Source of the DNA: Saprospira grandis str. Lewin
GTDB taxonomy: Bacteria > Bacteroidota > Bacteroidia > Chitinophagales > Saprospiraceae
NCBI RefSeq assembly: GCF_000250635.1
Contig: NC_016940.1
Location: forward strand, 1,224,995-1,288,994
Direction: 5' to 3'
DNA length: 64,000 bases
Shown: piece by piece, positions 3,608 through 62,650 of the stretch
How positions within the stretch are numbered: position 1 is the first letter of the stretch
How the letters are laid out: every line of letters starts with the position of its first letter
The notes under the pieces: generated by a model
Database searches by the model: none
The model's input: the letters and a program-made list of their open reading frames with translations, nothing else
What the model was told of the DNA's origin: nothing
Translations under genes and position numbers: made by a program

Positions 3608-3735
3608 TTTTTTTGGGGCCTGCCGCCTTCGGCGGCCGGGCCCTTGCAGGGCTCGCAAGCCTGCTCGGCCCTTCGTTTTTCGCTGCGCTCAAAACTCGGT
3701 CTGGCCTGCGGCCACCCTTTCAGGCCCCTAGGCCA
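3608..3735. repeat. GC-rich intergenic repeat element, forward orientation (family described in findings)
   Basis: Begins 'ttttggggcctgccgccttcggcgg' and ends 'ggtctggcctgcggccaccc...ctaggcc'. Shares the core 'gctcgc..gcctgctcggccc' with 18 other copies in the window. Coordinates approximate. Confidence 0.8.
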
Positions 3736-3815
3736 ATAGCCACTGCGGCTTTCAGCCGCAGCAAAAAGGGCCAGCTCAAAAGCTGGCCCAAGACCTAGCA
3801 GGGCGCAAAGCGCCC

Positions 3816-3945
3816 GCAGGCTGAGGGATGGGAGCAGGGCCGCCGCAGGCGGCAGACCCAGGCGCTTTAGTGCCGCAGGGCCGAGCGAACAGCGAGCTGC
3901 GGACAGCCCGACCCGCCCGCAGGGCGGGGCAGCCCCAAAAAATCA
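3816..3945. repeat. GC-rich intergenic repeat element, reverse orientation, variant B
   Basis: Sequence 'ggctgagggatgg...gccgcagggccgagcgaacagcgagctgcgg...ggggcagccccaaaa'. Reverse-complement form of the copies at 6855-7000, 15436-15592 and 62460-62650. Confidence 0.8.
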
Positions 3946-3955
3946 TCATCTAGTA

Positions 3956-4978
3956 TTAAAGCGATAATTCCCAACTCAAACCCGAAATATCCACTAATTT
4001 TAGGGTTTTGGCCTTGGCCGCTAAGGCTTTGGAAATCGGCAGACTCAGACGGGCCTTGGCCCCCAAGGGAACCACTAGGCTATGCGCCCCCGCCTTGATT
4101 TTAGCGGGATAAGCATTCTGAATTTGTTGATCGGGCAGGCTAGAAAGGGCTTTTTGGTCCCAGTTCTTAAGGATTTGGCCCTCCTCATCTAGCAATTCAA
4201 TTTGGATGAGAAAGGAGCCATAGACATCTGCTCCCTCTATGCGATAGAGCTCAAAGCTTAGGCTATCGGCCTGAAAAATCGGGGCCGAAAGGGCCAATTT
4301 GGGCTTAACCGATTTGTTGTGTAGCTGTCCCCAAAGGCCAGAATGAAAATATTGGTTAGTATAAAGTGCTAGGGCAAAAATGAGCAAACTGCCCCATAAA
4401 ACGGGCTTTTGGAAGCCTTCCCAGCGGATAGGGCCAGAGCTCCAGAACGATAGGTAGCCGGTCCAGCCCCAACGCTCCAAAGCATAATGGTCTAGACTGT
4501 AGCGGCCGCCGCCCGTCATCAATATACTTGCCCCAGCAGATACCCCCAAAATGCCGATTTGCCATTCATCTAGGCAGGTGGTGCCCAGCCAGCCTGAGCC
4601 CAGCAAAATGCCTAGGGCAAGGCCCAAAACGGCCAGACTCATCAGGCGGCTCAAAAAACCGAGCATAAAAAAGAGGCCCACAACGCCCTCTATCAGGGTA
4701 AAAAAGAGCATGGCCCACCACAAATAGGCGGGATGTTCGAGCAAAAACTCGATGATTGGGCCAATGCCAAGGGCCTGCGGCAAAAAATGATTAAACTTGA
4801 TACCGATATAATTGGCGGCATCGGGATCTAGCTTATTGGAGAGAATCAGGCGGCGCCAAAAAGCCGAGAAATAGGTCCAACCCACCACTAGACGGAGGCC
4901 CAAATTAAAGACGCCCAATAATTTATAGGAAAGAAACTGCTGCCCATCTTGGGGCAAAACTGCTGATTGATTTGACAT
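3956..4978 (-). CDS. DoxX-family membrane protein with a C-terminal soluble extension
   Basis: 340-aa ORF. The N-terminal ~170 aa contain four hydrophobic segments resembling DoxX/TQO small subunit proteins. Start may be further downstream because of overlap with the next ORF. Confidence 0.5.
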   Translation of the reverse strand: MSNQSAVLPQDGQQFLSYKLLGVFNLGLRLVVGWTYFSAFWRRLILSNKLDPDAANYIGIKFNHFLPQALGIGPIIEFLLEHPAYLWWAMLFFTLIEGVVGLFFMLGFLSRLMSLAVLGLALGILLGSGWLGTTCLDEWQIGILGVSAGASILMTGGGRYSLDHYALERWGWTGYLSFWSSGPIRWEGFQKPVLWGSLLIFALALYTNQYFHSGLWGQLHNKSVKPKLALSAPIFQADSLSFELYRIEGADVYGSFLIQIELLDEEGQILKNWDQKALSSLPDQQIQNAYPAKIKAGAHSLVVPLGAKARLSLPISKALAAKAKTLKLVDISGLSWELSL

Positions 4979-5396
4979 AGAAATGAGTTTTTTTAATGAA
5001 TGAATCGCTTAATTGCCAAGCATTCATCAACTCATTTTTCCATTGTTGGTAGAGCAGAAAATAGGGCCGAGGAGGGCCGCGGGGGCCTTCGGCATCGAGC
5101 ATAGCTCTATTTTTCCGCTTCATTTGGCTCAAAAAAAATAGCGAAGCCGAAGAAAGAGGCGCTGGGCCTGTTTTCTTTAGCTTCACTATTGTTTGGCCCC
5201 ATTGCAGCAGCCTGTTTTCGCTTTTTTGTTCTGTTTTCGCACAACTTAGGCCTTTGGCTTTGGCGGCCACGGCCGTAGGCAATTGGTCCAAACTGCTTTG
5301 CAGGGCCCAGCGCATTTTGCAGGGGGCTAGCAAGAGCAAGCTGCCCAAAAAGAGCAGACCAATATATGTGCGGAGCCTATTCATAGGCACAAACAT
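4923..5396 (-). CDS. Hypothetical small secreted protein (weak call)
   Basis: 157-aa ORF with a signal-peptide-like N-terminus 'LLFLGSLLLLAPC' in an otherwise 445-bp gap. Low-complexity composition. No recognisable family. Confidence 0.3.
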   Translation of the reverse strand: MFVPMNRLRTYIGLLFLGSLLLLAPCKMRWALQSSLDQLPTAVAAKAKGLSCAKTEQKSENRLLQWGQTIVKLKKTGPAPLSSASLFFLSQMKRKNRAMLDAEGPRGPPRPYFLLYQQWKNELMNAWQLSDSFIKKTHFYVKSISSFAPRWAAVSFL

Positions 5397-5424
5397 AAGG
5401 CTTTATTCCTTTCCCTTTTCTTAG

Positions 5425-6815: not shown

Positions 6816-6854
6816 AATATTATATAGTTCTTGTTTTTCGGTTGGGGTTATGGG

Positions 6855-7000
6855 AAATTTTGGGGCTGCCCCGGCCAAGGGCCGGGTCGGGCTGTGTCGG
6901 GGCTCGCTATTCGCTCGGCCCTGCGCGGGCTTTGCCCGCTGGGTCTGCGGCTTCGCCGCCCCCCTATCCATCCCTCAGCCTGCGGCGCTTCGCGCCTGCT
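6855..7000. repeat. GC-rich intergenic repeat, variant B, forward
   Basis: Sequence 'ggggctgccccggcc..gggtcgggctgtgtcggggctcgc..ttcgctcggccctgcgcgggctttgcccgctgggtctgcggcttcgccgcccccctatccatccctcagcc'. Confidence 0.85.
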
Positions 7001-7009
7001 TGCTGCAAA

Positions 7010-7642: not shown

Positions 7643-7667
7643 AGGAAAGGAGTTTCTGGTCCAAAAA

Positions 7668-7830
7668 ATGGCGGCTTTGCCGCCTTGGCCGCAGGCCAAA
7701 CGGCCTAGCGATGTGCAGGGGTGGCCGAAGGCCAGACCGAAGCGCGCAGCGCTGAAGGGCCGAGCGAACAGCGAGCCCTGGAACGTAGCGCCGCAGCTTT
7801 GCTGCGGAGGCCCCAAAAAATCAGCGAGCC
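7668..7830. repeat. GC-rich intergenic repeat, variant A, reverse
   Basis: Sequence 'ggcctagcgatgtgcaggggtggccgaaggccagaccgaagcg...gggccgagcgaacagcgagccctggaacgtagcgccgcagctttgctgcggaggccccaaaaaa'. Confidence 0.85.
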
Positions 7831-7974
7831 CCGGAACGACAACAAGGTCTTTAGACCGTCTTTGACGACCGAAGGGAGTAACCGCCGCCTCATCATATGA
7901 GTGGAGGCCCCAAAAGGGCATAAAAAAGGGGAGAACAGCGAACTGTCCTCCCCTCAAAAGTACAATATTTTGGC

Positions 7975-13775: not shown

Positions 13776-13912
13776 ACTGGCTGAGGGATGGATAGCAGGG
13801 CCGCCAAAGGCGGCAGACCAAGGAGCCCAAGGCGACGCAGGGCCGAGCAAGCCTGCGAGCTGCGACACAGCCCGACCCGAGCGAAGCGAGGGGCAGCCCC
13901 AAAAATAGCCCC
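13776..13912. repeat. GC-rich intergenic repeat, variant B, reverse
   Basis: Sequence 'ggctgagggatggatagcagggccgcc...cagggccgagcaagcctgcgagctgcgacacagcccgacccgagcgaagcgaggggcagccccaaaa'. Confidence 0.85.
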
Positions 13913-15435: not shown

Positions 15436-15592
15436 TTTTTCTTTTTTGGGGCTGCCCCGCCCTGCGGGCGGGTCGGGCTGTGTCGGGGCTCGCAGGTCTG
15501 CTCGGCCCTGTGCGGGCTTTGCCCGCTGGGTCTGCGGCTTCGCCGCCCCCCTTTCCATCCCTCAGCCGAGGCGCTCCGCGCCTCTCGCCCAA
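15436..15592. repeat. GC-rich intergenic repeat, variant B, forward
   Basis: Sequence 'ttttggggctgccccgccctgcgggcgggtcgggctgtgtcggggctcgcaggtctgctcggccctgtgcgggctttgcccgctgggtctgcggcttcgccgcccccctttccatccctcagcc'. Confidence 0.85.
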
Positions 15593-16783: not shown

Positions 16784-16785
16784 AG

Positions 16786-17680: not shown

Positions 17681-18979
17681 ATGATGCACCGCCTCCTTTT
17701 GTGGATTCCTTATATATTTTATTGTTTTTATTCTATGCTAAGTAGGATTTGGGGCCTCCTGCCTTCGGCAGGCGCTATGTTCGGCAGCTCGCAAGTCTGC
17801 TCGGCCCTGCGGCCCTACGGGCCTGGGTCTGCGGCTGCGCCGCACTGCCTACCAGCGCTAGGCCCTGCCCGCCCTCGGCCCAATAACGTCCTACAGGCGG
17901 CGATAGCCGCCGCAGGCCTAGGGATGGAAAGCGGTGGCCGAAGGCCAGACCGAGGCGGCTTTGCCGCCGAAGGGCCGAGCGAAGAGCGAGCCGCGACACA
18001 GCCCGCCGCCAAGGCCGCAGGCCTGCAGCGGAGGCCCCAACTCCTGCTGATTATCCTTACCTTTTTACTGCCTGTACTGGCTTCTGCCCAAGCCAATATT
18101 CAGTTTTTGGTGGATAGTACAGAGTTGTTGATTGGCGACCAATTGACGGCTCGGATGCGGCTAGAAAGTCGAGAAGATGTACTGGTCCGCCTGCCCAACC
18201 CTACGGTATATTGGGATGATGACTTAGTGGAAGTCATTCGACTTTCGGATCAATTGGAGGAGATTAGCCCTGATGGATTAAATAGTTTTGAGAAAAAGAT
18301 CACTTTTACCTTTTGGGATACGGGCCATTATCAGCTGCCCGATTTGCCCATTTTGTATCAGAAAGATGGACAAATAGACAGTCTTTGGTTGAAAGTGCCC
18401 CTGATTCGGGTCAAGTTTCCGCCGGGCATTCGGGGCGATTCTAGTTATGTTGCACCGATTAAGGACATTATGGATGAGCCGCAGAATTTTATAGAAAAGC
18501 TGCTAGAATGGTTCTTCTTTTATCTGCCAATTGTTGCGGTAGTTTTTCTCATTTTGTTTGCTAGTGTCTTGGGCTTTTTGGCCTATTTGCTCTACAAAAA
18601 AGCGCAGGCTAGAAAAACCTACAAAACGCCTGAAGAGCGGGCACGTATAGCCCTAAAAAAGCTATTGGCCAAGGGCTATTTGGAGCGAGAAGAATGGGCA
18701 GAATTTCATACGGGCATCAGTTGGATTATCCGGAGTTATTTGCGGCTTCGTTTTAGAGTTCGGGCTTTAGAGGCCACCACTAATCAGCTATTAGATCGGC
18801 TAAATTATGAGCATCTAGAGCAGAGTTTACTCTTAGAATTGAGAGAAGTACTAGAAACTGCGGATTTGGTCAAATATGCCAAGGCTTCGCCTTTGGCGGC
18901 GGCCAATGATTTTTCCTTAAAATTTATCCATAAAATGTTGGAATATGTAGAGCGGCAGGAAGCCCTCCGCAATCGTTAA
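17681..18979 (+). CDS. Bat-operon membrane protein (DUF4381-like); true start uncertain
   Basis: Central TM segment 'WFFFYLPIVAVVFLILFASVLGFLAYLLY'. The N-terminal ~120 codons of the ORF call are occupied by two back-to-back GC-rich repeat copies (17745-18045), so the annotated ATG at 17681 is doubtful. A signal-like 'LLLIILTFLLPVLASAQA' follows the repeat with no in-frame ATG. Confidence 0.55.
   Translation: MMHRLLLWIPYIFYCFYSMLSRIWGLLPSAGAMFGSSQVCSALRPYGPGSAAAPHCLPALGPARPRPNNVLQAAIAAAGLGMESGGRRPDRGGFAAEGPSEERAATQPAAKAAGLQRRPQLLLIILTFLLPVLASAQANIQFLVDSTELLIGDQLTARMRLESREDVLVRLPNPTVYWDDDLVEVIRLSDQLEEISPDGLNSFEKKITFTFWDTGHYQLPDLPILYQKDGQIDSLWLKVPLIRVKFPPGIRGDSSYVAPIKDIMDEPQNFIEKLLEWFFFYLPIVAVVFLILFASVLGFLAYLLYKKAQARKTYKTPEERARIALKKLLAKGYLEREEWAEFHTGISWIIRSYLRLRFRVRALEATTNQLLDRLNYEHLEQSLLLELREVLETADLVKYAKASPLAAANDFSLKFIHKMLEYVERQEALRNR
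17745..18045. repeat. Two adjacent GC-rich repeat copies (forward then reverse) lying inside the 5' end of an ORF call
   Basis: Sequence 'ggggcctcctgccttcggcaggcgctatgttcggcagctcgcaagtctgctcggccctgcgg...' then '...ggtggccgaaggccagaccgaggcggctttgccgccgaagggccgagcgaagagcgagccgcg...gcggaggccccaa'. Confidence 0.8.
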
Positions 18980-22437: not shown

Positions 22438-22590
22438 GGAAGCAGCCAAGCGCAACTTGGCCTAGCGATGTGCAGCAGTGGCCCGCAGGGCCAGACCGAG
22501 CCGCTGAAAGCGGCGAAGGGCCGAGCGAACAGCGAGCTGCGAAACGTAGCGCCGACGACCGAAGGGAGGCGGAGGCCCCAAATAAATAGA
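22438..22590. repeat. GC-rich repeat copy (variant A, reverse) located inside the Bat operon
   Basis: Sequence 'ggcctagcgatgtgcagcagtggcccgcagggccagaccgagccgctgaaagcggcgaagggccgagcgaacagcgagctgcgaaacgtagcgccgacgaccgaagggaggcggaggccccaaa'. Confidence 0.85.
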
Positions 22591-25139: not shown

Positions 25140-25275
25140 TTTGGGGCCTCCGCAGCAAAGCTGCGGCGCTACGTTTCGGGGCTCGCTGTTCGCTCGGCCC
25201 TGCGGCAGCAAAGCTGCCTGGGTCTGGCCTGCGGCCACCCCTACACATCGCTAGGCCTGCGGCGCTCCGCGCCTG
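25139..25275. repeat. GC-rich repeat, variant A, forward
   Basis: Sequence 'tttggggcctccgcagcaaagctgcggcgctacgtttcggggctcgctgttcgctcggccctgcgg...ggtctggcctgcggccacccctacacatcgctaggcctgcgg'. Confidence 0.85.
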
Positions 25276-28222: not shown

Positions 28223-29780
28223 CTTGGGTTGACCCACTTTTTATAGCGGTGTCAATTTAGGGATCGATATCCATCATACATAAATATGAATCTCTCTAAC
28301 CCTAGTCCTATTTTCTTGACGGATACGGCATGCCTAGTTTTCTTCACTGCGCCATTAAATTCGCCCAACCTTGCTATGATCCAATAGGCCCAAGCTATTG
28401 ATTTAGAGGTAAATGGGTTACGCAAAGAAGGGCTTTGGCTTTCGCCTTTTAGATATTGTTTAAATATAAGATCTAAGACTTCTACTTCATCTTCTGTGAA
28501 AATAGAGGTTGCTGGAGTCTCATTATCTTGGTTAAGTCCAGCTTCTTTAAGCTTAAGGACCTTGTCAGATGCACTGATTGCCATAAGTATCATTTTGCGG
28601 ATAGCTTTACCTGTTTTTAAACATATGTTTTCAATATCAAAGCCATCTGATTTTAAATATTTAAAGTATGTTTCAATTAACCACCTCTTGCGGTAGCAAA
28701 GAACAAGCTCTAAGAGCTCTTCTTCGCTGTTGATTTCTTCATTTGTGAGTAAGCGCCAACTGATGGTTTCATCATCATGATCTTTTTTTGTTCGGCTTCT
28801 TTTTCTAGCGGCAGATTTTGAAAAACCTTTGCCCTTTTCAAAGACCTCAATAACATTGATTGTCATTGGTTTAGGCCTTGGTTCGCCAAGAACATACTTA
28901 CAAGATTTGGGAACGGCAAAAGTCACTTTTTTAGATCGAATAACTAGCTTCTTCCCGTTAAGTTTTTTACGGCTACTCTTGACCGTTTCTGTCGTCTCAA
29001 AGTCTGCTGGATAATGTTCAAAGACATCACATAATGGAATCTTTTTGCCATCCTCCCAAATCGTTGCTCGTCTATCTGTTCGAGACCGAATCAAGAACTT
29101 AATATGCTGTCTGAAAAAACTTTCCATCATAGGATAAACATCTCCTTCTCGATCACAAACATGTAAAATATCAATTAGGTCGTTAATTATTTTTAACGCA
29201 GATTCTGTCTCTTCTACATTTATTTTCCACCTCGTAATTTCACCTCTAAAATGACCCGTATTTCTATTTTCAGCCTCCTTACAAGTTACTCTATTTTTAT
29301 ATCGATTATAAAGCTGAATACCTCCTAAGCCATGATAATGAAAGCTTTCTCGACCATATAGTAGAGCCATGTGAAGAAATACAGACAAATTTGTTTCCCG
29401 ACCTCCAGGGCCTAAACCCTCTTTGTCGGTTAGTCTATTTCTTTGCTTGTTCAGTACAACTTCAGAGGTGTCGTGAAAGGCCAGAAGCTTTTCTTCAACC
29501 ACCTTCATAGACTCCCTACTTTTGCCAATAAACTCAAATTGAATGTATTCCTCAGTAAGATTTTTGTTTGATAACAACCTCATGAAAGCCTTACGGTCTG
29601 CATCAGTTTTTGCTACATTTGTTAAATGTGGGTTAGGATTATTTTTTAGACTCTCTACTAATCTATAACATACTCTTACTGATTGCTTATTTAACATAAA
29701 TGAAGATACCTTTGTACTGTCCATATAAATCTTGATTTAGAGCTAAGTTAAGCTTATTTTTAAAAGTGGGTCAACCCAAG
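28223..29780 (-). mobile_element. IS4-family insertion sequence (1558 bp) with 19-bp perfect terminal inverted repeats and a 9-bp target-site duplication
   Basis: Left inverted repeat 'cttgggttgacccactttt' (28223-28241). Right inverted repeat 'aaaagtgggtcaacccaag' (29762-29780). Direct repeat 'ccccaaagc' immediately outside both ends (28214-28222 and 29781-29789). Confidence 0.85.
28252..29724 (-). CDS. IS4-family DDE transposase
   Basis: 490 aa. 'YRKRWLIETYFKYLK' fits the IS4 Y-x2-R-x3-E-x6-K signature. Single ORF filling the element. Confidence 0.85.
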   Translation of the reverse strand: MDSTKVSSFMLNKQSVRVCYRLVESLKNNPNPHLTNVAKTDADRKAFMRLLSNKNLTEEYIQFEFIGKSRESMKVVEEKLLAFHDTSEVVLNKQRNRLTDKEGLGPGGRETNLSVFLHMALLYGRESFHYHGLGGIQLYNRYKNRVTCKEAENRNTGHFRGEITRWKINVEETESALKIINDLIDILHVCDREGDVYPMMESFFRQHIKFLIRSRTDRRATIWEDGKKIPLCDVFEHYPADFETTETVKSSRKKLNGKKLVIRSKKVTFAVPKSCKYVLGEPRPKPMTINVIEVFEKGKGFSKSAARKRSRTKKDHDDETISWRLLTNEEINSEEELLELVLCYRKRWLIETYFKYLKSDGFDIENICLKTGKAIRKMILMAISASDKVLKLKEAGLNQDNETPATSIFTEDEVEVLDLIFKQYLKGESQSPSLRNPFTSKSIAWAYWIIARLGEFNGAVKKTRHAVSVKKIGLGLERFIFMYDGYRSLN

Positions 29781-29867
29781 CCCCAAAGCATAGCGGCGGC
29801 CGCCCTACTATAAAGGGCGGCCGCGGGCCCCAAAACACCCTAAAAAGAACTACATAAAACATCTAAA

Positions 29868-40389: not shown

Positions 40390-40580
40390 CGGGCTGTTTT
40401 TTGTCCTGCTTTATACTTTGCCCCCTAGTTGCTTGCAGCGGCTAGGGGGCTTTGTTGTTTGGGCTAATCCCCAGCAGTTTACTCTAACTCATTCAGCCGC
40501 TATTTAGCGAGACTATTCTTAGCCTATTGGCTAGGTCTCCTCCCCAATTATTATAGCAAATGAAGAGGGTTTATGCTAGT

Positions 40581-40640
40581 CCTCTAGAGGGGGTCCCCTA
40601 CCCCTCTGCAGGGGTTGCGCACCCCCTCAGGGGGATTCTT
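40581..40640. repeat. Three consecutive GC-stem hairpin palindromes
   Basis: 'cctctagagg' (perfect 10-bp palindrome), 'cccctctgcagggg' and 'ccccctcaggggg' in a row, downstream of the esterase gene, with no T tract. Confidence 0.5.
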
Positions 40641-40689
40641 CTACCTCCAAGCGAGGACCTATAGAAATCATCAGGAGGACCTCATAAAA

Positions 40690-40865
40690 TCCTCGGGAGG
40701 ACGTCAATAAATCCTCTTGACCATTTTACAAGATCCTCGGGAGGACGTTAATAGATCCTCACGACCATTTTGCAAGCTCCTCGGGAGGACGTTAATAGAT
40801 CCTCTTGACCATTTTACAAGGTCCTCGAGAGGACCTTCTTAAATCATCTTGATGAGGTAGTGAGG
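40690..40865. repeat. Tandem array of 4-5 degenerate 44-bp direct repeats, each beginning 'tcctcgggaggac'
   Basis: Units at 40690, 40734, 40778 and 40822 ('tcctcgggaggacgttaatagatcctcttgaccattttacaag'), a partial fifth unit and a partial unit upstream. In a 760-bp ORF-free region. Confidence 0.8.
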
Positions 40866-41150
40866 TCCTCTTGATGAGGTAGTGACCCCCTAAAGGGAAA
40901 TCAGCCTTTACCTAAGGTTCAACAGCTAGCAAAATGGCTAAATTTTATCGCCTAATGCGAACAATTTAGCCTAAAAACCTGCCAAATACTAAAAAATAGT
41001 ATCTAAAACGTATTTTTTATTAGTTATAACTTGCATTATTAAATTGTTTACCTTATGTTTATAACGTAGACAACGAAAAGGACTATAACTTTGTAGTTGT
41101 CGAACAAGTTCTTGACTAATAAATTTTTAATCAATTAAACATTTTGACCT

Positions 41151-43027: not shown

Positions 43028-44080
43028 CTAAGCCTCCAAAGAAGCCATATCAATAACGAAGCGGTATCTCACATCGCCTTTTTCGAGTCGGTCAAAGGCT
43101 TCATTTACCTCTTGGATATTGATGCGTTCTACGTCGGCAACAATTTGGTGCTCGGCACAGAAGTCTAGCATTTCTTGGGTTTCTGCAATACCACCGATAT
43201 TAGAGCCTGAAAAGCTTTTGCGTCCTTTTACCAATTGGAAGGCGCCTACTTCTAGCGGTTGAGCGGGTAGGCCCACAATAACGAGGCTACCATCTACGGC
43301 TAGGGCACTCAAATAACTGTTCACATCATGTTTGGCAGAAACTGTATCAATGATGAGATCAAAGCCTTTGGCTTGGGCCATGGCTTCGGGATCAGTAGAT
43401 AAGATCGCTTGATCAGCCCCTAAGCGTTTAGCATCTTCGGCCTTAGCTACAGAACGGGTGAATACGGCTACTTCTGCCCCCATGGCTTTAGCGATACGAA
43501 CGGCCAAATGGCCCAGTCCACCAATACCAATAACAGCTACTTTTTTGCCTGGACCAGCCTTCCAATGTTTGAGGGGGGAATAAACCGTGATGCCTGCACA
43601 AAGTAAGGGAGCCGCAGCGGCTAGGTCCTCAAAGTTGGGCATTTTCAAGACATAGCCCTCATTACAAACATAGAATTTGGAGAAGCCGCCATAGGTTCGT
43701 CCACCAGAAACCTTATCTGGAGAGTTGAAGGAGAAGGTCATGCCTTCTTCACAAAACTGTTCTTCTCCAGACTCGCAATGTTGGCAATGCTGGCAAGAAT
43801 CGACAATACAGCCAACAGCAGCTAGATCGCCTACATTAAAGTTTTTTACTTCGGGCCCAACTTGAGTCACTCGGCCTAAGATTTCGTGGCCAGGGACAAT
43901 AGGAAAAGTTGTTCCGCCCCAATCGTTGCGGACCGAGTGTAGATCAGAATGGCAAATACCACAAAACAGGATTTCCATTTCTACATCTGTAGCTAAAAGG
44001 GTTCTTCTTTTGATTTGCATACTTTCTAGAGGCTGAGTAGCGGCCTCTGTGCCATAAGCTTTTACGCTAGTCATATTCAT
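43028..44080 (-). CDS. Zn-dependent NAD(P) alcohol dehydrogenase (cinnamyl-alcohol-dehydrogenase-like)
   Basis: 'GHEILGRVTQVG' zinc-ADH signature. Structural-zinc Cys cluster 'CQHCQHCESGEEQFC'. Rossmann 'VIGIGGLGHLAV'. Confidence 0.85.
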   Translation of the reverse strand: MNMTSVKAYGTEAATQPLESMQIKRRTLLATDVEMEILFCGICHSDLHSVRNDWGGTTFPIVPGHEILGRVTQVGPEVKNFNVGDLAAVGCIVDSCQHCQHCESGEEQFCEEGMTFSFNSPDKVSGGRTYGGFSKFYVCNEGYVLKMPNFEDLAAAAPLLCAGITVYSPLKHWKAGPGKKVAVIGIGGLGHLAVRIAKAMGAEVAVFTRSVAKAEDAKRLGADQAILSTDPEAMAQAKGFDLIIDTVSAKHDVNSYLSALAVDGSLVIVGLPAQPLEVGAFQLVKGRKSFSGSNIGGIAETQEMLDFCAEHQIVADVERINIQEVNEAFDRLEKGDVRYRFVIDMASLEA

Positions 44081-44492
44081 TTACTAGTTTTTTGATGGTT
44101 GTGTGATTGAAAATTACTTTTTAGGGAGAGGGGATTTCCCTGCTGTTCTGAGATAGCTCAAGCCAACATTTACACCTAAATCGTGAGCAGCGATAAGAGC
44201 TTCTAGAGCTCTTTGTCCAAAGCCGCCCAATTAATTAAAAGCCTCATCTAATGCTTTAACTTATTCGGAGCTCAAACTCAGGTAAGCAGCGGCACTACGC
44301 ATACTTACTTTTTTAAATGAAAGTCCCTACTCTGATCGCTAAGTTCAGCGATAGAAATCGAAACGAAAACGTTCACATCAAAAGGAATCTTAGGATATAG
44401 CGGAGTCATCAACTACTTCCCTTTGTTGCCTTACAAAGTTAAGGGAAGTTGGAACAGCAAAATGACGTTTTTAAAATAGAAGATTACGAAAT

Positions 44493-45377
44493 TCAAACCT
44501 TCCTAAATTGACCAGGGGTCATTTTCAATTGTTTCTTGAAAAAGTTATTAAAATGAGTAGCCTCAGTAAAGCCCAAGCCATAGGCAATTTCCGAAATATT
44601 CCAGCTCGTATCCTTTAAAAGGATTTTTGCCTCTCTCAATATTCGCTCTTGGATAATTTGACTTGTCGTTTTATCAACTGTTTCTTTGAGTACTCTATTT
44701 AAATAGTTAGGATGAATATTCAACTTTTCAGCAAATTCAGAAGCCGTCCGCAACTCTACTCTTGGATGTAACTCATCTAAAGGGAACTGTCGACCCAATA
44801 ATTCAAAAAAAAGCGTAGATATCCGCTCCGCTGCATTTAAAGTATGCTGTTGACTTTCACTAGGCTTCAATTTCATAGCAAAATGAATAAGCTCTTGGGT
44901 CAGCATTCTAAGTACATCAAGCTTAAACTCATAAGTAGAAGCAATCTCTTTGTGCATCTTTGCAAAAATGTCTTTTACCCAAGCCAATTGCTCATCGTCT
45001 AACTCAAAGACATGATGCCCCTTAGGTTGAAAAACACTATACTTTGACAATTTACTATACGAGTAAAAAAAATCATCGCTGAAAATAGCATAATGCCCCT
45101 TGTGCACACTCTCAAAATGCTTCCAACAATAAGGAATGTATGGATTGGTGAAAATCAACGCCTGCTTAGGTATCCGAATGACTTTGTCTGCATACTGCAT
45201 CAAACTATTCCCCTCCAATAAACTCACCTTGTAATAATCTCGCTTCTTATAAGGAAGCGGCTTTTTGTTTTCTGTCTCAAAAGGCTCTATTTCAAAGACA
45301 TTAAAATCACCGCTCTTTCTAGTTTGGTCCCTCATCAGTTTTGTTTTATCAGCAGTTCCCCAGATAATCCTAGGCAA
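44493..45377 (-). CDS. AraC-family transcriptional regulator
   Basis: C-terminal AraC HTH ('ISEIAYGLGFTEATHFNNFFKKQLKMTPGQFRK') and N-terminal cupin-like ligand domain. Confidence 0.75.
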   Translation of the reverse strand: MPRIIWGTADKTKLMRDQTRKSGDFNVFEIEPFETENKKPLPYKKRDYYKVSLLEGNSLMQYADKVIRIPKQALIFTNPYIPYCWKHFESVHKGHYAIFSDDFFYSYSKLSKYSVFQPKGHHVFELDDEQLAWVKDIFAKMHKEIASTYEFKLDVLRMLTQELIHFAMKLKPSESQQHTLNAAERISTLFFELLGRQFPLDELHPRVELRTASEFAEKLNIHPNYLNRVLKETVDKTTSQIIQERILREAKILLKDTSWNISEIAYGLGFTEATHFNNFFKKQLKMTPGQFRKV

Positions 45378-45513
45378 AACAAAGTTACGATTTTCGTACT
45401 ATAGTTTTAACTACTAAAACTAGTTTAGCACTCTTTGGTCCTCAAAAGAAATATCTCAGTATTAAGCAAACCAAAGCCGCCAACTTATCTCTATAAGCTG
45501 GCGGCTTTATGCG

Positions 45514-47865: not shown

Positions 47866-48768
47866 CTACCAGCGCTCTAAAGTTCGATGACTCACTCCTA
47901 AAGCCTCCCCTGCTTTTTGTAAAGTGCCATATTTCTCTACAGCCCAATATTTAAGTTTTGCCTTAAAGTTTCTAATTAGCTCATCAGCACTTTTATCTTC
48001 GATACTGAATTCATAAATGCCTGTCTCTTTACTTTCGGGAAAATGATTGTATTTCTTGAATCCTGCTATAACTTCTTGCGCCAAATGCTTATCGTCCACC
48101 TCTTTTTCAGCTAAAATATCTCTATAAGATTGATCCCAGCTTATACAAAGTTTATCCAGGTCTCTGAAATTTCCATTAAAGCTATGCCCCTTCTCCTTTA
48201 GGAAATCTTCTAACACTTTAGGGTAAGGCGCTTTTTTAAACCCAAACTTTTTCCAACTTACCTTAAAGTCTTCAACAATCTTAGCGGAACAACTATCAAA
48301 GCTCGGAAACTCCACTACAAGTTGAGCAATGCGATCAAAAAAATGATTGCTCAAGTATTGCCGACTATCTCTTAGGTTCGCAATAGGTTTAGAGGAACTA
48401 AAGACAACACGTACCTCATACTCTTTTTCAGCTAAGCCAAATTTCCCATCCTTAGTCGACAGCCCTTCAAATAACAACTCTTGGCTTTTTTTAGACAAAT
48501 ACTCCACATCCTTAATCAAAAGGATTTTCTGATGTGCTTTTTTTAAAATATGCGCCCAAAAATCTTTTGTCTCTTCGGTTAAGCGCCCTTTTACCATAAT
48601 CACTTCTATTCCTTTTTTTTCTGCAAACTGTTCTAGCCAAAATGTTTTTCCAGTCCCTGTTTTTCCTAGGATAAGAATAGAAAATCGTCCTGGATTCTCA
48701 AGGTAGTTATTCAATTTCTGAATAGCTGCCTTTCTTTTTGCGTGCTGTTTATCTATTGACACTTTCAT
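47866..48768 (-). CDS. Truncated RtcR-like AAA+/HTH regulator lacking both the N-terminal CARF-like domain and the GAFTGA region
   Basis: 300 aa. Walker A 'ILILGKTGTGKTF' sits at residue ~30. 'FFDRIAQLVVEFPSF' matches the sigma54-activator 'FReDLyyRLnV..i.lPpL' segment. 'NGNFRDLDKL' vs E. coli RtcR 'RGNFRELSAS'. C-terminal Fis-type HTH 'LQKAGEALGVSHRTLERW'. No GAFTGA. Confidence 0.6.
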   Translation of the reverse strand: MKVSIDKQHAKRKAAIQKLNNYLENPGRFSILILGKTGTGKTFWLEQFAEKKGIEVIMVKGRLTEETKDFWAHILKKAHQKILLIKDVEYLSKKSQELLFEGLSTKDGKFGLAEKEYEVRVVFSSSKPIANLRDSRQYLSNHFFDRIAQLVVEFPSFDSCSAKIVEDFKVSWKKFGFKKAPYPKVLEDFLKEKGHSFNGNFRDLDKLCISWDQSYRDILAEKEVDDKHLAQEVIAGFKKYNHFPESKETGIYEFSIEDKSADELIRNFKAKLKYWAVEKYGTLQKAGEALGVSHRTLERW

Positions 48769-48887
48769 TTATGTATTTTTTTGCGGGTTATTTAGTCTTT
48801 TTTTGCGGGTATCAATATGCCTCTTACCTATGCCCTACATTTGTAGAGTAATCAGCTGATACACTATTATTTACTTATTTAAAATCA

Positions 48888-49040
48888 ATGCTTATGAAAT
48901 ACGATGGAAAAGATTCTGATGAAATGGAACAACACGATATAGACAATCGTGCTGACCAACTTAACCCCAATAATGATGCATACTGGACTTCTAGAGACTA
49001 TGATGAGCGTCCAAATGATTGGGAAGATCTTGTTGACTAA
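48888..49040 (+). CDS. Unannotated small ORF, 50-aa highly acidic peptide (hypothetical)
   Basis: Translates to 'MLMKYDGKDSDEMEQHDIDNRADQLNPNNDAYWTSRDYDERPNDWEDLVD', codon-checked. Below the 60-aa ORF-track cutoff. Divergent from the truncated regulator gene. Confidence 0.35.
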   Translation: MLMKYDGKDSDEMEQHDIDNRADQLNPNNDAYWTSRDYDERPNDWEDLVD

Positions 49041-51944: not shown

Positions 51945-52090
51945 CCGAAGCGAAGGGCTTCTATTTGGCCTAGCGCTGCGGCGGGGTGGCCCAAAGGGCC
52001 AGACCTAGGCGGCAAAGCCGCCGCAGGGCCGAGCAGACCTGCGAGCCCCAAAGCATAGCGCCCGCAGCTTGCTGCGGGAGGCCCCAAAAG
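51945..52090. repeat. GC-rich repeat, variant A, reverse (a separate fragment lies at ~51765-51800)
   Basis: Sequence 'ggcctagcgctgcggcggggtggcccaaagggccagacctaggcggcaaagccgccgcagggccgagcagacctgcgagccccaaagcatagcgcccgcagcttgctgcgggaggccccaaaag'. Confidence 0.85.
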
Positions 52091-52113
52091 CCCCTCATTT
52101 AACCCTCAAAACT

Positions 52114-55720: not shown

Positions 55721-55802
55721 TTGTTTGCTTGCTTTTGCTTAACTTGCAGCCAATTCGCATTTCAAACATAGAGGCTCGACCTCTTCAAAGCTTTTTATTT
55801 CT

Positions 55803-56459: not shown

Positions 56460-56504
56460 TTAAAGCCCAAGAAGATAAAGGCTGCTGAAAAGTAGCCTTT
56501 TTTT

Positions 56505-56710
56505 TTGGGGCCTCCCGCCTTCGGCGGGCGGTTACTCCCTTCAGTCGTCGAACTGCGGCCTAAAGGCCTTGTTGTCGTTCCGCAGCTCGCTGCTGTTTTG
56601 GGGCCTCCCGCCTTCGGCGGGCGCTACGTTCCGCAGCTCGCTCTTCGCTCGGCCCTGCGGCCTGACGGCCTTGGTCTGCGGCTGCGCCGCACTGCTACAC
56701 ATCGCTAGGC
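56505..56710. repeat. GC-rich repeat, variant A, forward, with an internal partial duplication (two 'ttttggggcctcccgccttcggcgggcg' heads)
   Basis: First head at ~56507 and second head at ~56596, then '...cgctacgttccgcagctcgctcttcgctcggccctgcggcctgacggccttggtctgcgg...catcgctaggcc'. Confidence 0.85.
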
Positions 56711-56782
56711 CGCTCATCTGCCTTTTTCTAGCTTAAGTTTCTTCTTTGGCGGCTGGGTAGTTTTGGGCCGATGGGCTGAAGC

Positions 56783-57306: not shown

Positions 57307-57354
57307 GGAATTTGCGAAAACGTACATCAAGACTTTGATGGGCTGTTCCAAAAT

Positions 57355-57495
57355 TCGTCTTACAGGCCCGAAGGGCCGCAGGCCTAGCGATGCGAAAGGG
57401 GGCGGCGAAGCCGCAGACCAAGGCCGTCAGGCCGCAGGGCCGAGCAGACCTGCGAGCCCTGAAGCGTAGCGCCTGCAGCTTTGCTGCAGGAGGCC
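57355..57495. repeat. GC-rich repeat, variant A, reverse
   Basis: Sequence 'ggcctagcgatgcgaaagggggcggcgaagccgcagaccaaggccgtcaggccgcagggccgagcagacctgcgagccctgaagcgtagcgcctgcagctttgctgcaggaggccccaaaa'. Confidence 0.85.
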
Positions 57496-57537
57496 CCAAA
57501 ACAACAACAGCAAGAGCATAAAAAACAGCAGACTAAA

Positions 57538-58713: not shown

Positions 58714-58825
58714 ATAGAGTTTTTCTCTCCCTAAATTTTTTATTAAATTGTAAATGCTTTAGCGATTCATTTAAAAAAGTGTGGATTTATTCCCTTTTCG
58801 ATGAAAAAGTCAACCCAAGGATTTT

Positions 58826-60940: not shown

Positions 60941-60979
60941 CTTTGCGCTATTATTTTCACGCATCCTCCCCTCCGAATC

Positions 60980-62455
60980 ATGAAAGTTACTGCAGAAAAA
61001 ATAGCCCTTTATAGTCTTGGATTTCTTTTTTGTATCCTGCTACTCTACAAGGCGGTCAAGATGAGCATGACCCATGATGAAGCCGCTACTTTTTTGGTCT
61101 ATACCAAATGGTCTATTTATGACATCTGGACCAATTCGGGTCCCAATCCTACGGCCAACAACCACCTACTCAATACCTTATTGATTAAGTTTTTGGTGCA
61201 GCTCTTTGGCGATCATCAGTTGGTGGTTCGCCTTAGCAATATTTTAGCGGGATTCAGTTTTCTCTATTTCTCTGGGCGCCTGATGCAGCAGGTTTTTGGG
61301 CCAAAAAATAAGCTTTTGGTCCTTTTGGGCTTCAGCCTGCTGCTAATGAATAATTATCAGTTTGATTTTTTTGCCGTGGCCCGCGGTTATGGCTTGTCTA
61401 TGGGCTTTTTTATGCCTGCGATCTATTTTTCGCTGCAGGCGGTCGCCAATTCTTCTATCCGAAGTTGGAGCTGGGCGGTCGGCCTTTGTCTGCTGGCGGT
61501 TTTGGCCAATTTTAGTAGCCTGGTTTTTTGTATCGCCTTGCTGGGCAGCGCACTGCTGCTGGCGCTCAAAAAAGAGCGAAACTGGCGGTTTTTGGGCCAA
61601 AGTCTAGGTATTGCTAGTCTGGCGGCCCTCGTTTTAGGGCTGGCCATTGCCCCTGCCATCATTCGCCTCATCGACTTTGAGCAGCTCTATTTTGGGGGAA
61701 ATAATGGCTTTTTTCAAGATACTATAGGCAGCTTGGCCCGATCCTATACACACAATATTTCCTTTTTGCATTCGCCCAAATATATCCATTGGGGCTTTGG
61801 GTTTCTGCTTATTTTTGCCGCTGCCCGCCTGCTTTTTTCGCTGATCAAAGAGAAAAGTCAGGGCCCTGCCCTTTTCATTCAATTGGGTTTATCCTGCCTT
61901 TTGGCTAGTTGCATCGGCCATCTTTTGCTGCACCTCCTTTTCGATGTCAAGTTTCTGATTCAACGGACGGCCCTGATTTATTTTCCCCTGCTGCAGTTTT
62001 CACTCATTAGCCTGCTGTATAGCCTTTATCAGGTTTTTCCCTTGGCCAAAAAATGGAAAAATACGGCTTTGGTCTTCGCTAGCGTTCTGGGCCTAAGCCT
62101 TTTTGGCCTCAACTACCGCCCCAATACCATGACCGAATGGTACTATAATGTAGAGGATAGAAAAATTTTGAGCGAATTGGAGGCGAGCATTCCCCAAAAT
62201 GAAACCCATACCCTGGGCATTTGGTGGCTCTTTTTCCCCACTTTCGAGTTTTATCTAGAAACGGGAGTCTATCAAAATATTCAGCTCAATCCACACAATA
62301 TGCAGCTCGATCTCGAGCAGGATTATGACTATTATTTTATTGACCACAATGCAGAACGAGTGGCCGCTTTAAGCGAAAAATACGAGCGCTTCAAAAATTA
62401 CCAACAAGGGATTCTCTTTCGCCATAAGAACTTTCCCATTCAGAAAAATAACTAG
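60980..62455 (+). CDS. GT39/ArnT-like integral-membrane glycosyltransferase (PMT_2 family)
   Basis: At least 10 TM segments. N-terminal 'MSMTHDEAATFLV' and 'NNHLLNTLLIKFLVQLFG' loop typical of ArnT/PMT-fold transferases. Confidence 0.6.
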   Translation: MKVTAEKIALYSLGFLFCILLLYKAVKMSMTHDEAATFLVYTKWSIYDIWTNSGPNPTANNHLLNTLLIKFLVQLFGDHQLVVRLSNILAGFSFLYFSGRLMQQVFGPKNKLLVLLGFSLLLMNNYQFDFFAVARGYGLSMGFFMPAIYFSLQAVANSSIRSWSWAVGLCLLAVLANFSSLVFCIALLGSALLLALKKERNWRFLGQSLGIASLAALVLGLAIAPAIIRLIDFEQLYFGGNNGFFQDTIGSLARSYTHNISFLHSPKYIHWGFGFLLIFAAARLLFSLIKEKSQGPALFIQLGLSCLLASCIGHLLLHLLFDVKFLIQRTALIYFPLLQFSLISLLYSLYQVFPLAKKWKNTALVFASVLGLSLFGLNYRPNTMTEWYYNVEDRKILSELEASIPQNETHTLGIWWLFFPTFEFYLETGVYQNIQLNPHNMQLDLEQDYDYYFIDHNAERVAALSEKYERFKNYQQGILFRHKNFPIQKNN

Positions 62456-62459
62456 TGTT

Positions 62460-62650
62460 TTTTGGGGCTGCCCCAGCCTTCGGCTGGGTCGGGCTATGTC
62501 GCAGCTCGCAGGTCTGCTCGGCCCTGCGGGCTTTTTCGCTTTGCTTCAAAAGCCCTGGGTCTGGCCTTCGGCCACTGCTTTCTATCCCTCAGCCGCGTCG
62601 CTGCGCTCCTATGCGGGCGCTGCGCGCCCTGCAAAACCGCAATTGGACCA
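62460..62650. repeat. GC-rich repeat, variant B, forward
   Basis: Sequence 'ttttggggctgccccagccttcggctgggtcgggctatgtcgcagctcgcaggtctgctcggccctgcgggctttttcgctttgc...gggtctggccttcggccactgctttctatccctcagccgcg'. Confidence 0.85.

Follow-up and report, generated by a model that had tools for sequence, protein, structure and literature searches.

A structured, REP/BIME-like intergenic repeat family in Saprospira grandis and related Saprospiraceae

Repeat copies in a 64-kb window and range of the family

The intergenic regions of the window, by which we mean the entire 64-kb stretch of Saprospira grandis str. Lewin DNA that was analysed, are rich in copies of a repeat with a unit length of 115-135 nt. 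Using a covariance model trained on 19 of the window copies (cmsearch), we found 20 matches, 10 on the forward and 10 on the reverse strand, all of them between genes. Scores ranged from 52.8 to 120.5 bits (E-values from 3e-24 to 1.7e-9), with no match expected by chance. The search with nhmmer also gave 20 copies, and blastn with two seed copies produced matches at every position listed in an earlier, sequence-only reading of this DNA, each of which holds a family member. The copies make up 3.8% of the window and have a GC content of 69.9%, versus 46.7% for the rest, in agreement with the enrichment noticed earlier. The statement that almost every intergenic gap carries a copy was too strong, as one was present in 18 of the 29 gaps of at least 60 nt between genes. 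Beside the 20 copies, there are two related partial units, which have the 5' end in common with full copies. The features are as follows (scores in bits are from cmsearch):

3612..3734, forward strand: full copy, subfamily D (GGGGCCTGCC…GGCCCCTAGGCC), 86.2 bits; left partner of a tail-to-tail pair
3819..3939, reverse strand: full copy, subfamily B, 84.1 bits; right partner of 3612..3734, tail-to-tail
6859..6980, forward strand: full copy, subfamily B, 108.5 bits
7702..7817, reverse strand: full copy, subfamily A, 105.4 bits
7821..7914, reverse strand: C-type partial unit, directly 5' of copy 7702..7817
13779..13903, reverse strand: full copy, subfamily B, 94 bits; preceded by a duplicated GGGGCT-T run
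15445..15567, forward strand: full copy, subfamily B, 102.3 bits
17748..17864, forward strand: full copy, subfamily A, 107 bits; left partner of a tail-to-tail pair
17915..18041, reverse strand: full copy, chimera, 93.8 bits; right partner of 17748..17864
22459..22582, reverse strand: full copy, subfamily A, 109.8 bits; between two BatD-domain genes (Pfam)
25140..25257, forward strand: full copy, subfamily A, 120.5 bits; first base directly after a stop codon
28131..28222, reverse strand: 3' part of a split subfamily E copy, 52.8 bits
28223..29779, reverse strand: insertion sequence inside the subfamily E copy (Pfam DDE_Tnp_1, E=9.5e-8; end sequences)
29780..29834, reverse strand: 5' part of the split subfamily E copy
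33278..33393, forward strand: full copy, subfamily A, 105.9 bits
35639..35769, reverse strand: full copy, subfamily B with long middle hairpin, 112 bits
39247..39371, forward strand: full copy, subfamily A, 113.8 bits
41778..41896, reverse strand: full copy, subfamily A, 109.8 bits
47712..47828, forward strand: full copy, subfamily A, 110.5 bits
51967..52088, reverse strand: full copy, subfamily A, 114.1 bits
56504..56596, forward strand: C-type partial unit, weak match (E=0.046), directly 5' of 56597..56711
56597..56711, forward strand: full copy, subfamily A, 104.9 bits
57381..57500, reverse strand: full copy, subfamily A, 112.3 bits
62461..62594, forward strand: full copy, subfamily B, 109.4 bits

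The position previously given as 28078/29781 holds a single copy, split by a 1.56-kb insertion sequence that is the only one in the window. The insertion sequence carries a DDE transposase ORF at 28252-29724, inverted ends of 18-19 bp (TTGGGTTGACCCACTTTT) and a target duplication of 9-10 bp (GCTTTGGGGC), and its ends are unrelated to the repeat ends. Copies can therefore be insertion targets, and the insertion sequence itself stands outside the repeat family. In the partial unit at 7821..7914, the family 5' end and first hairpin are followed by GGCGGTTACTCCCTTCGGTCGTC…TTGTTGTCGTT…GGGGCTCGCTG, and the arrangement of a C-type unit with a subfamily A copy recurs at no fewer than 12 other loci. 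In the chimera at 17915..18041, both sides pair as in subfamily A in the outer part and as in subfamily B in the inner part. The copy at 22459..22582 was correctly placed between genes of a Bat operon (a BatA/BatB/BatD cluster by Pfam), but it is antisense to the operon, so that the opposite strand of the repeat would be present in any transcript. Eight mechanical ORF calls in the window run into copies, as anticipated from the sequence, and the repeat thus distorts gene calls. One short-read contig that we checked ends ~140 nt after the gene that precedes a copy in the window, likely because the assembly breaks at the repeat.

In 701 kb from Saprospira grandis DSM 2844 and from loci of Saprospiraceae metagenome-assembled genomes (MAGs), 191 matches were identified. 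One metagenome contig group, ~84% identical to DSM 2844, contained 63 matches, and copies are spread over an entire 4.4-Mb scaffold. The conserved frame of the repeat was nearly unchanged even in a Saprospiraceae MAG with best-matching proteins that are only 35-55% identical. The copy number is about a thousand per Saprospira genome, and the repeat represents about 3-4% of the genome. The family is restricted to Saprospira and related Saprospiraceae assemblies. No match was obtained when the whole window was searched against Rfam 15 at gathering thresholds, Rfam matches up to an E-value of 10 around one copy were at chance level only, and a literature search found no paper describing the family.

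Conserved scaffold, hairpins and covariation

The copies share the scaffold TTTGGGGCC…GCTCGC-N6-GCTCGGCCC…GGTCTG…CTAGGCC, which holds three hairpins of variable sequence, all of one polarity. GCTCGC, GCTCGGCCC and GGTCTG are invariant, and the spacer between the first two occurs in two forms. A core string quoted earlier turned out to be a composite, without a match at up to 3 mismatches. Subfamilies exist as proposed, but there are at least five, plus chimeras, and not two.

Each hairpin is a perfect palindrome with a 3-nt loop (TTC, TGC, AAA or TTT) at its centre. The hairpins had been described as stems with UUCG tetraloops, but the loops are 3-nt TNC and no UUCG tetraloop is in register. 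The TNC loops are on the forward strand, where GNA is almost never found (one GAA among ~90 such loops), and the loops are therefore GNA when read on the reverse strand. The first hairpin has a 6-7-bp stem and a 3-nt loop, with at least 32 different stem sequences in this slot.

The 5' boundary of the unit is sharp (TTT at 93-97%), and the 3' side is open-ended and fuzzy. Both ends have hairpins nearby, and the sequence 5' of the unit contains a strand-specific T-run. This flank is T-rich (65% T, 14% A), with the bias fading over ~20 nt. The 3' flank consists of variable GC-rich hairpins, with no direct repeat matching the 5' flank. No target-site duplication was seen at the copies, and T-richness was present on one flank only. 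The earlier statement that there are no obvious terminal inverted repeats holds for long ones (none of at least 10 bp matching an autonomous insertion sequence was found), but the ends can pair with each other over 5 bp, the only pairing they share, and this pairing covaries between subfamilies.

Beyond the three hairpins, four covarying helices form a nested fold, some of them spanning ~115 bases. Standard pairs were found in 99.2% of 3544 pair cells, versus 82% in shuffles and 29-65% with slid partners, and cells with double changes numbered 514, versus 148 in shuffles. Helix P3 has nine complementary allele pairs, and the mutual information between its sides is 2.12 of 2.30 bits, as opposed to 0.79 bits for a nearby spacer at a distance of a few bases. 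A covariation test had been named beforehand; the covariation is strong and extends to long-range helices that had not been noticed. Selection for secondary structure in the repeat is supported by these data. Wobble pairs are avoided, with 2 G·T and 12 A·C cells among ~3400 in the variable helices, and one helix has an invariant forward-strand G·T (149/150 rows; 148/149 distinct rows). Folding energies of single copies gave no advantage over shuffled sequence (z-scores between -0.1 and -1.4).

Orientation, pairing and comparison between genomes

Relative to flanking co-directional genes, 38 copies were sense and 41 antisense. Orientation along the chromosome was unbiased as well (71 versus 78), without a link to GC skew. 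Neighbouring copies at least 400 nt apart alternate in orientation (127 versus 23, p=1e-18), and spacing is asymmetric (median 1.6 versus 3.5 kb, p=4e-12). Pairs within 400 nt comprise 38 tail-to-tail, 2 head-to-head and 3 tandem cases, and there are also convergent partners at longer range; most units have such a convergent partner, near or far. The close pairs, earlier called head-to-head, are tail-to-tail, with the T-run 5' ends outward. Convergent pairs enclose 16 nt to ~3 kb, and the partners belong to different subfamilies in 4 of the 8 window pairs. The enclosed genes are ordinary and differ by pair (ABC ATPase, peptidase and glycosyltransferase among others), and none encodes a transposase.

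The general description was borne out: the family is intergenic, GC-rich and pervasive, resembles REPs and BIMEs, has subfamilies and occurs in both orientations. The case for RNA-level function that had been made from UUCG loops was not borne out, in view of the TNC loops, the rarity of G·U, the folding energies and the random orientation. The near absence of G·T pairs from the variable helices, the orientation independent of transcription and the GNA loops of the reverse strand point to DNA over mRNA as the selected form.

In stretches aligned to other Saprospira genomes at 93% and ~84% identity, all 28-29 copies were at the same sites, and presence/absence polymorphism was seen in none of them, in a sample biased toward shared sites by the selection of loci. 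Orthologous copies differ mainly by patchy replacement of whole modules with base pairing preserved, as expected from gene conversion between copies. Divergence of copies without replacement was 2.2%, versus 5.6% for other intergenic DNA and 14.9% for four-fold sites, and one orthologous pair was identical despite ~84% flank identity, so that a host-level function fits at least as well as a selfish element. In the window, the copy at 17748..17864 has 3 differences to its DSM 2844 orthologue, the copy at 17915..18041 has 1 difference to its orthologue, and the copy at 62461..62594 differs from a metagenomic Saprospira orthologue in 6 of 134 bases, 4 of these 6 being two compensatory pair changes.

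DNA between facing 3' ends was alignable between genomes for 74%, versus 95% between facing 5' ends, an excess of variation inside convergent pairs that goes back to about five events. At pairs whose enclosed DNA is not the same in two genomes, the copies on either side are both still in place. One inversion breakpoint, between L021 and L312, maps to a copy.

Interpretation and comparison with known systems

The best reading, to which we give about an even chance, is that of a previously undescribed interspersed family of REP/BIME/REPIN type in Saprospira and close relatives, an unusually elaborate relative of REPs and BIMEs. On the reverse strand, subfamily A, the main one, reads C-GTAG-CG, then a 6-7-bp stem with 3-nt loop, then GGAGGCCCCAAA, which fits the published REP search rule of a GT[AG]G tetranucleotide that precedes a hairpin by 0-2 nt (PMC6006769). 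This reading applies to 124 of 184 copies in total and to 9 of the 20 window copies. The GTAG foot is absent in other subfamilies, which have ACAG (B), CAAG (D) or ATAG (E). Genes of the Bacteroidetes-specific RAYT subclass 2.6 are described as having atypical structures on their flanks, which occur again at other places in the genome and have 3-nt loops and feet such as GCTAG and GCTGG (PMC6006769). These pentamers also end the Saprospira repeat. Inverted dimers, as known from REPs and REPINs, are frequent here (the 38 tail-to-tail pairs within 400 nt), and REP dimers whose partners are separated by inserted DNA have been described by Di Nocera et al., 2013 (PMC3733652), who did not report GTAG repeats in Bacteroidetes. 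The REP hallmark of a short unit (20-40 nt, loop of 2-5 nt, basal stem of 7 or more nt without unpaired bases) whose stem sequence is constant in a family was not found, as the conserved unit is 115-135 nt long and its stems vary. In ~0.8 Mb of Saprospira DNA (~10-15% of a genome), a motif search and tblastn with E. coli RayT gave no RAYT-like ORF, TnpA was not found, and no transposase of any kind was linked to the family.

The past spread of the family may have used a strand-specific, single-strand DNA mechanism such as that of REP-associated tyrosine (HUH, Y1) transposases. The first hairpin with its 5' GTAG foot on the reverse strand would be the recognition unit. Recognition of the folded single strand would have preserved the fold, and present use of the elements by the host may contribute to this. 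After this spread, copies would have become largely immobile and been homogenised by recombination.

Several observations speak against a REP reading, namely the missing GTAG foot in B, D and E, the variable stems and greater length of the unit, the lack of orientation bias along the chromosome, the lack of insertion polymorphism in the aligned stretches and the lack of a RAYT-like ORF in the ~0.8 Mb; in addition, the invariant forward-strand G·T would suit a forward-strand RNA. Nested covarying helices with conserved unpaired junctions are typical of functional RNAs, and a structured RNA with a host function, made from neighbouring transcripts or its own promoter and with its fold selected as RNA, would also agree with that invariant G·U, with the scaffold preserved in the distant MAG and with highly conserved orthologous copies whose changes preserve structure. 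We consider it unlikely, given the balance of sense and antisense copies between co-directional genes, the 2 G·U versus 12 A·C cells in the variable helices, triloops that are neither UNCG nor GNRA tetraloops, the folding energies and the lack of an Rfam match. Moreover, no promoter-like motif was found inside the element; the Bacteroidetes -7 box includes an upstream TA, which the 5' TTTG lacks. A host feature at the DNA level is also unlikely. Here convergent pairs would be protein-binding or recombination sites bracketing genes, with any mobility long past, and might organise the chromosome or mark places of DNA gain or loss. Alternating orientation and asymmetric spacing are what such sites would show, as are the poorer alignment between facing 3' ends, the inversion breakpoint, the positions fixed across species and the Watson-Crick-only pairing, but no binding protein or recombinase was linked to the repeat, the enclosed genes are ordinary and the variation excess amounts to few events. 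The alternation could also be passive, with direct-repeat neighbours lost by deletion, or could come from REP-like dimers split by later insertions.

It is very improbable that the copies are classic cut-and-paste MITEs or that, with TTTGGGGCC at the terminus, they form the long inverted ends of DNA transposons that carry cargo. The sharp outer (5') and fuzzy inner boundaries, the convergent pairs and the covarying 5-bp termini would fit such elements, but target-site duplication was not seen and the T-rich flank is on one side only, partners are often of different subfamilies, and the enclosed genes differ by pair without a transposase among them. Both flanking copies also remain where the enclosed DNA differs, and polymorphism was not found in the sample biased toward shared sites. 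Finally, we see a limited chance of a separate class of ~120-nt single-strand elements with a four-helix scaffold, the junction GCTCGC…GCTCGGCCC…GGTCTG and three free hairpins, selected at about a thousand fixed sites. Its gene-bracketing convergent pairs could be, for example, recombination, integration or chromosome-organising sites, which would account for both the alternating orientation and the excess gene-content change between partners.

The family joins features that are usually separate. It has hairpins and dimers like those of REPs, but also a covarying fold of several helices with conserved junctions, as in RNAs; its positions are highly stable, and its copies evolve in concert, module by module. 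Should the repeat be recognised by a Bacteroidetes RAYT, the many copies would show on a large scale what a Y1 transposase reads in a folded single strand; if there is no such enzyme, the alternating, gene-bracketing layout would direct attention to a role in genome organisation or gene turnover.

Among known systems, IS200/IS605-derived PATEs have subterminal hairpins, no terminal inverted repeat or target-site duplication, insertion 3' of a short fixed one-strand target, orientation biased by replication direction and TnpA in the genome; unlike IS200/IS605, the Saprospira repeat has no chromosomal orientation bias. Integron attC sites (e.g., Vibrio VCRs) resemble it as 60-140-nt sites defined by folded single-strand structure, with conserved short boxes, variable stems and adjoining gene-sized variable DNA, but lie in direct orientation in one array with an adjacent integrase and have RYYYAAC/GTTRRRY boxes. 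Identity with attC was rejected, as the ends TTTGGGGCC…CTAGGCC lack R''/R' boxes and the copies alternate and are scattered over the 4.4-Mb scaffold. ERIC/IRU, RUP, BOX and Correia/NEMIS elements are of similar length, have imperfect dyad symmetry and are intergenic in either orientation; we know of no sequence similarity between them and the Saprospira repeat. ERIC is likewise highly conserved in sequence across genera, but is a single long hairpin without variable-sequence branch hairpins, and Correia elements differ by 26-bp terminal inverted repeats and TA duplication.

Like enterobacterial BIMEs, the repeat is an intergenic mosaic of hairpins and conserved linkers with several alternative modules per slot, and in both cases the share of the genome can reach a few percent. 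In BIMEs, REPs alternate in orientation and are conserved in sequence, whereas the three hairpins of the Saprospira unit have one polarity, free sequence and a covarying fold of the whole unit. GTAG-tagged REPs and REPIN doublets are reportedly mobilised by RAYTs (Nunvar 2010; Bertels & Rainey 2011; Di Nocera 2013, PMC3733652; Quentin 2018, PMC6006769). The Saprospira unit is 3-4 times longer than REPs and tied together by long-range helices, the GTAG is missing in some subfamilies, and, in contrast to classical REPs, it is the linkers that are conserved and the stems that vary. It shares with REP/REPIN-RAYT systems the high copy number, the extragenic location, GC-rich hairpins, frequent inverted dimers with variable DNA between partners, positions stable between related genomes, several subfamilies per genome and, on one strand of subfamily A, a GTAG at a distance of 2 nt from a stem of 6-7 bp that is capped by a 3-nt loop. 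The REPs of RAYT subclass 2.6 are similarly atypical, with 3-nt loops and GCTAG/GCTGG feet (PMC6006769).

Copy number and anatomy of the repeat unit

The intergenic repeat family noticed in the sequence-only reading is real, with corrections, and every listed position was matched by blastn with two seed copies. With a profile HMM, 20 copies were detected in the window, and the count rises to 218 once 89 fetched loci are included. A search with a covariance model based on 19 of the window copies gave 20 window matches, 10 per strand, with scores of 52.8-120.5 bits and E-values of 3e-24 to 1.7e-9. Copies have a GC content of 69.9%, versus 46.7% for the rest of the window, and take up 3.8% of it. 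They do sit in intergenic gaps, but in 18 of the 29 gaps of at least 60 nt and not in almost every one, and the core that had been quoted is a composite consensus, absent as an exact string even with up to three mismatches allowed. The genome total would be ∼1400 copies if extrapolated from window density, or ∼900 from the fetched loci after correction for locus choice.

Read on the forward strand (the strand beginning with a T-run), the unit starts with TTT-GGGGCC-TCC, hairpin 1 and GGCGCTACGTTTC, continues with GGGG-CTCGC-(AGGTCT or TRTTC)-GCTCGGCCC-TGCG, hairpin 2 and CT-GGTCTG, and ends with hairpin 3 followed by A-CCCC-TCCACAT-CGCT-AGGCC. The outer parts distinguish at least five subfamilies. 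Chimeras between subfamilies exist, and those combining A-type outer with B-type inner sequence are symmetrical on both sides. Partial units of the C type also occur in the window:

7821-7914, C-type partial unit directly 5' of a full copy, with the 5' end and first hairpin as in full copies
56504-56596, C-type partial unit directly 5' of a full copy, with the 5' end and first hairpin as in full copies

The same arrangement of C-type unit and full copy was found in at least 12 further places elsewhere.

The 5' boundary is sharp, with TTT in 93-97% of copies and a T-run length of 0-8, and is preceded by a T-rich flank (65% T, 14% A) that decays over ∼20 nt. The 3' boundary is fuzzy, as GC stays high for ∼30 nt more, in optional extra hairpins. 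An intrinsic terminator was considered and rejected, because on the forward strand the T-run precedes the GC-rich part, and on the other strand it is an A-run; a terminator-like hairpin abuts only 14 of 184 copies, versus 3.4% of control TTTG sites. The locus of S. grandis DSM 2844 orthologous to window ∼35620 (L026, ∼592-740) has a 145-bp unrelated insertion beside the 3' side of the copy, which the window lacks.

The listed 28078/29781 is a single copy, split by a 1.56-kb insertion sequence in a region of low GC (0.39-0.43):

28223-29779, insertion sequence inside a repeat copy, with 18-19-bp inverted ends TTGGGTTGACCCACTTTT and a 9-10-bp target duplication GCTTTGGGGC
28252-29724, minus strand, DDE_Tnp_1 transposase ORF of 490 aa inside the insertion sequence

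Two other small palindromic repeats, CTGTAGGTTGAAACCTACAG and AATGAGGGTTAAAACCCTCAT, are recurrent: some are inserted into a copy's hairpin 1, others lie immediately 3' of a copy and flank variable segments. They resemble additional repeat families that have the Saprospira repeat as target or companion. Their positions in the window and in fetched genome loci are:

L063:∼3950-4019, minus strand, small palindromic repeat
L069:∼2840-2909, minus strand, small palindromic repeat
L045:4249-4345, plus strand, small palindromic repeat
L047:∼4700-4790, small palindromic repeat
window ∼52090-52110, small palindromic repeat

Separately, horizontal acquisition is possible for two low-GC stretches (0.36-0.38) at window 44000-45400 and 48000-49000, which carry genes for an AraC-type regulator and a sigma-54-interaction AAA ATPase.

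Covariation and the question of strand

RNAalifold predicted nested long-range helices beyond the local hairpins of the window copies. P1 pairs the ends of the unit, as GGCCT/AGGCC or, in subfamily B, as GGCTG/CAGCC; P2 consists of GC/GC or GG/CC; P3 joins the four bases before CTCGC with four bases after hairpin 3; and P4, at the base of hairpin 2, is formed by GGCC and GGTC. Covariation had been proposed as a check on the hairpins, and it proved strong and extends to these long-range helices. In 150 copies from other genomes, aligned with the covariance model, standard pairs were found in 99.2% of 3544 pair cells (versus 82.4% in column shuffles, and 29-65% when partners were slid by 1-3 columns) and both-side changes in 514 cells (versus 148 in shuffles), figures that are flattered by an alignment fitted to the model. 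The P3 alleles were therefore inspected directly. They form nine different complementary pairs, most commonly GGGG/CCCC (55), AGGG/CCCT (37), GCAG/CTGC (30), GCGG/CCGC (13) and GTGG/CCAC (6). The two sides are 75-120 bases apart and share 2.12 of a possible 2.30 bits of mutual information, while each side shares 0.79 bits with the spacer a few bases off and 0.35 bits with P1. This pattern is explained by a pairing constraint and not by linkage by descent. Folding energies of six single copies did not go beyond those of shuffles (z -0.14 to -1.38), and the case for structure is therefore one of covariation, evolutionary and not thermodynamic.

The hairpins are perfect palindromes whose register gives 3-nt loops, which rules out the UUCG tetraloops originally proposed. 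Forward-strand loops are TTC, TGC, TAC, AAA or TTT, with GAA and GCA almost absent (1 GAA among ∼90 such loops); bases 1 and 3 are kept and the middle base varies. Variable helices contain 3384 Watson-Crick, 2 G·T and 12 A·C cells, so that wobble pairs are evidently not tolerated on the forward strand. The rare mismatches become wobble pairs if read on the reverse strand, where TNC loops also become GNA. C-GNA-G triloops are very stable in DNA hairpins. A reading of the reverse strand as folded DNA has against it the invariant forward-strand G·T of P4 (149 of 150 rows; 148 of 149 distinct rows), which is an A·C mismatch on the other strand.

Orientation is not tied to transcription, as copies between co-directional genes divide into 38 sense and 41 antisense cases, and the copy within the Bat gene cluster (BatA, BatB and BatD domains) is antisense. 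Replication-strand bias was likewise absent along a 4.4-Mb scaffold and relative to GC skew (71 versus 78). The argument for RNA-level function from UUCG loops thus finds no support in the loop length, the near-absence of G·T or the balance of sense and antisense copies. Together, the pairing, loop and orientation data argue against a strand-specific role within host mRNAs, and lean towards selection on single-strand DNA, or on the ability of both strands to fold.

Alternating orientation and stability of sites

Neighbouring copies alternate in orientation (167 alternating versus 26 same). This holds for neighbours at least 400 nt apart (127 versus 23, p = 1e-18), and also when window, genome loci and metagenome loci are each counted alone. 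Pairs within 400 nt are mostly tail-to-tail, with facing 3' ends (38, versus 2 head-to-head and 3 tandem), and partners often come from different subfamilies. When not adjacent, partners with facing 3' ends have a median distance of 1.6 kb, whereas partners with facing T-run ends have a median of 3.5 kb and are never less than 1 kb apart (p = 4e-12). A transposon with cargo was rejected, as no transposase is encoded inside pairs, where the proteins are ordinary or unannotated.

Sites are shared between related genomes. The window is ∼93% identical to S. grandis DSM 2844 (three overlapping loci), and 8 of 8 copies in the aligned stretches are at the same site. Contigs of one metagenome, ∼84% identical to DSM 2844, have all 18-19 copies of the syntenic stretches in common with it, and 2 of 2 with the window. 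Because the choice of loci favoured common sites, this degree of sharing gives a maximum for site stability.

Divergence between the window and DSM 2844
Four-fold degenerate sites: 14.9%
Other alignable intergenic DNA: 5.6%
Three copies without module replacement: 2.2% (8/362 bases, all unpaired)

In other orthologous pairs a whole module was swapped: hairpin 1 only, hairpin 2 only, or the entire central block, which takes both sides of P3 along (GCAG/CTGC versus GTGG/CCAC). One pair has an entire unit from another subfamily, one is identical over 117 bases at ∼84% flank identity, and another differs at 6 of 134 bases, four of which make up two compensatory pair changes. These differences match the pattern expected from gene conversion among copies plus selection for pairing.

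DNA between facing 3' ends was alignable between genomes in 74% of its length, versus 95% between facing 5' ends, a difference that comes from ∼5 events. In three comparisons, both copies stay but one of the two genomes lacks the gene-sized or sub-kb stretch between their facing 3' ends, or has other DNA in its place:

L074:1796-3342, variable stretch between facing 3' ends, compared with L283
L047:4734-7103, variable stretch between facing 3' ends, compared with L282
window 40390-41150, variable stretch between facing 3' ends, compared with L026

None of the extra ORFs in these stretches has a significant Pfam match when the curated cutoff is applied. At L021:5772-6113, compared with L312, the synteny between DSM 2844 and metagenomic Saprospira flips orientation at a copy, which suggests an inversion with its breakpoint there. 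In the window, a 491-aa ORF without Pfam match (60980-62455, plus strand) is present that is absent from the syntenic metagenome contig L330, which has ∼35 nt between the histidine-kinase gene and the repeat copy at that place. An AT-rich intergenic stretch of ∼160 nt (35457-35620), upstream of the gene at 33522-35456, is near-identical in DSM 2844 despite a 15% difference at four-fold sites, and could be regulatory DNA or encode a small RNA.

Range of the family and relation to REP elements

A scan for an exact sub-pattern, covering a single genome of each species, placed the family in four assemblies: two Bacteroidota MAGs, one Saprospiraceae MAG and S. grandis DSM 2844. The best-matching proteins of the Saprospiraceae MAG are only 35-55% identical to those of Saprospira, yet its copies retain the scaffold as a 103-nt version that lacks hairpin 2; there is little synteny between Saprospira and the distant MAG. 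Metagenome matches satisfying the covariance model came only from Saprospira-like contigs of Ga0193958 and Ga0193951 and from one other contig, while scan matches in soil and other samples did not fit it. Core-pattern matches in viral contigs were at chance level, with a single weak model match (32 bits) at L158:4638-4740, minus strand (IMGVR_UViG_3300017971_000039). It contains the core GCTCGC-N5-GCTCGGCCC-TTC-GGGCTGG and then a hairpin, without the family ends, which makes it a possible distant relative, outside Saprospira, of the core motif. Against Rfam, the window had no match at gathering thresholds, and permissive thresholds brought up only chance-level matches to one copy. We found no description of the family in the literature.

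The reverse strand of subfamily A reads C-GTAG-CG-[6-7-bp stem, 3-nt loop]-GGAGGCCCCAAA, and so fits the rule for canonical REPs, GT[AG]G located 0-2 nt from a GC-rich short-loop stem (PMC6006769). REP-associated tyrosine transposases (RAYTs) of the Bacteroidetes-specific subclass 2.6 have gene flanks holding atypical structures that recur elsewhere in the genome, the listed examples having loops of 3 nt and feet that include GCTAG and GCTGG (PMC6006769); the same pentamers terminate the Saprospira repeat. Inverted dimers with variable DNA between the partners are common in REP families (PMC3733652). Based on the GTAG-tagged hairpin, the subclass 2.6 feet and the inverted dimers, the family is most likely REP/BIME/REPIN-like, in support of the initial REP/BIME-like reading. 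Its past spread probably used a strand-specific mechanism based on single-strand DNA, and its copies would now be largely immobile, their uniformity kept by conversion and selection. Within ∼0.8 Mb of Saprospira DNA, neither a motif search nor tblastn with E. coli RayT detected a RAYT, the best match being antisense inside a dehydrogenase gene.

The repeat also departs from known REPs, in its 120-nt covarying fold, its stems of free sequence with conserved linkers, its conservation across genera and its alternating arrangement. For these reasons we keep two rivals alive: a structured RNA that serves the host, and a function at the DNA level, in genome organisation or gene turnover. If the REP/BIME/REPIN-like assignment is correct, the family would be an unusually elaborate addition to the REP/BIME-type elements.
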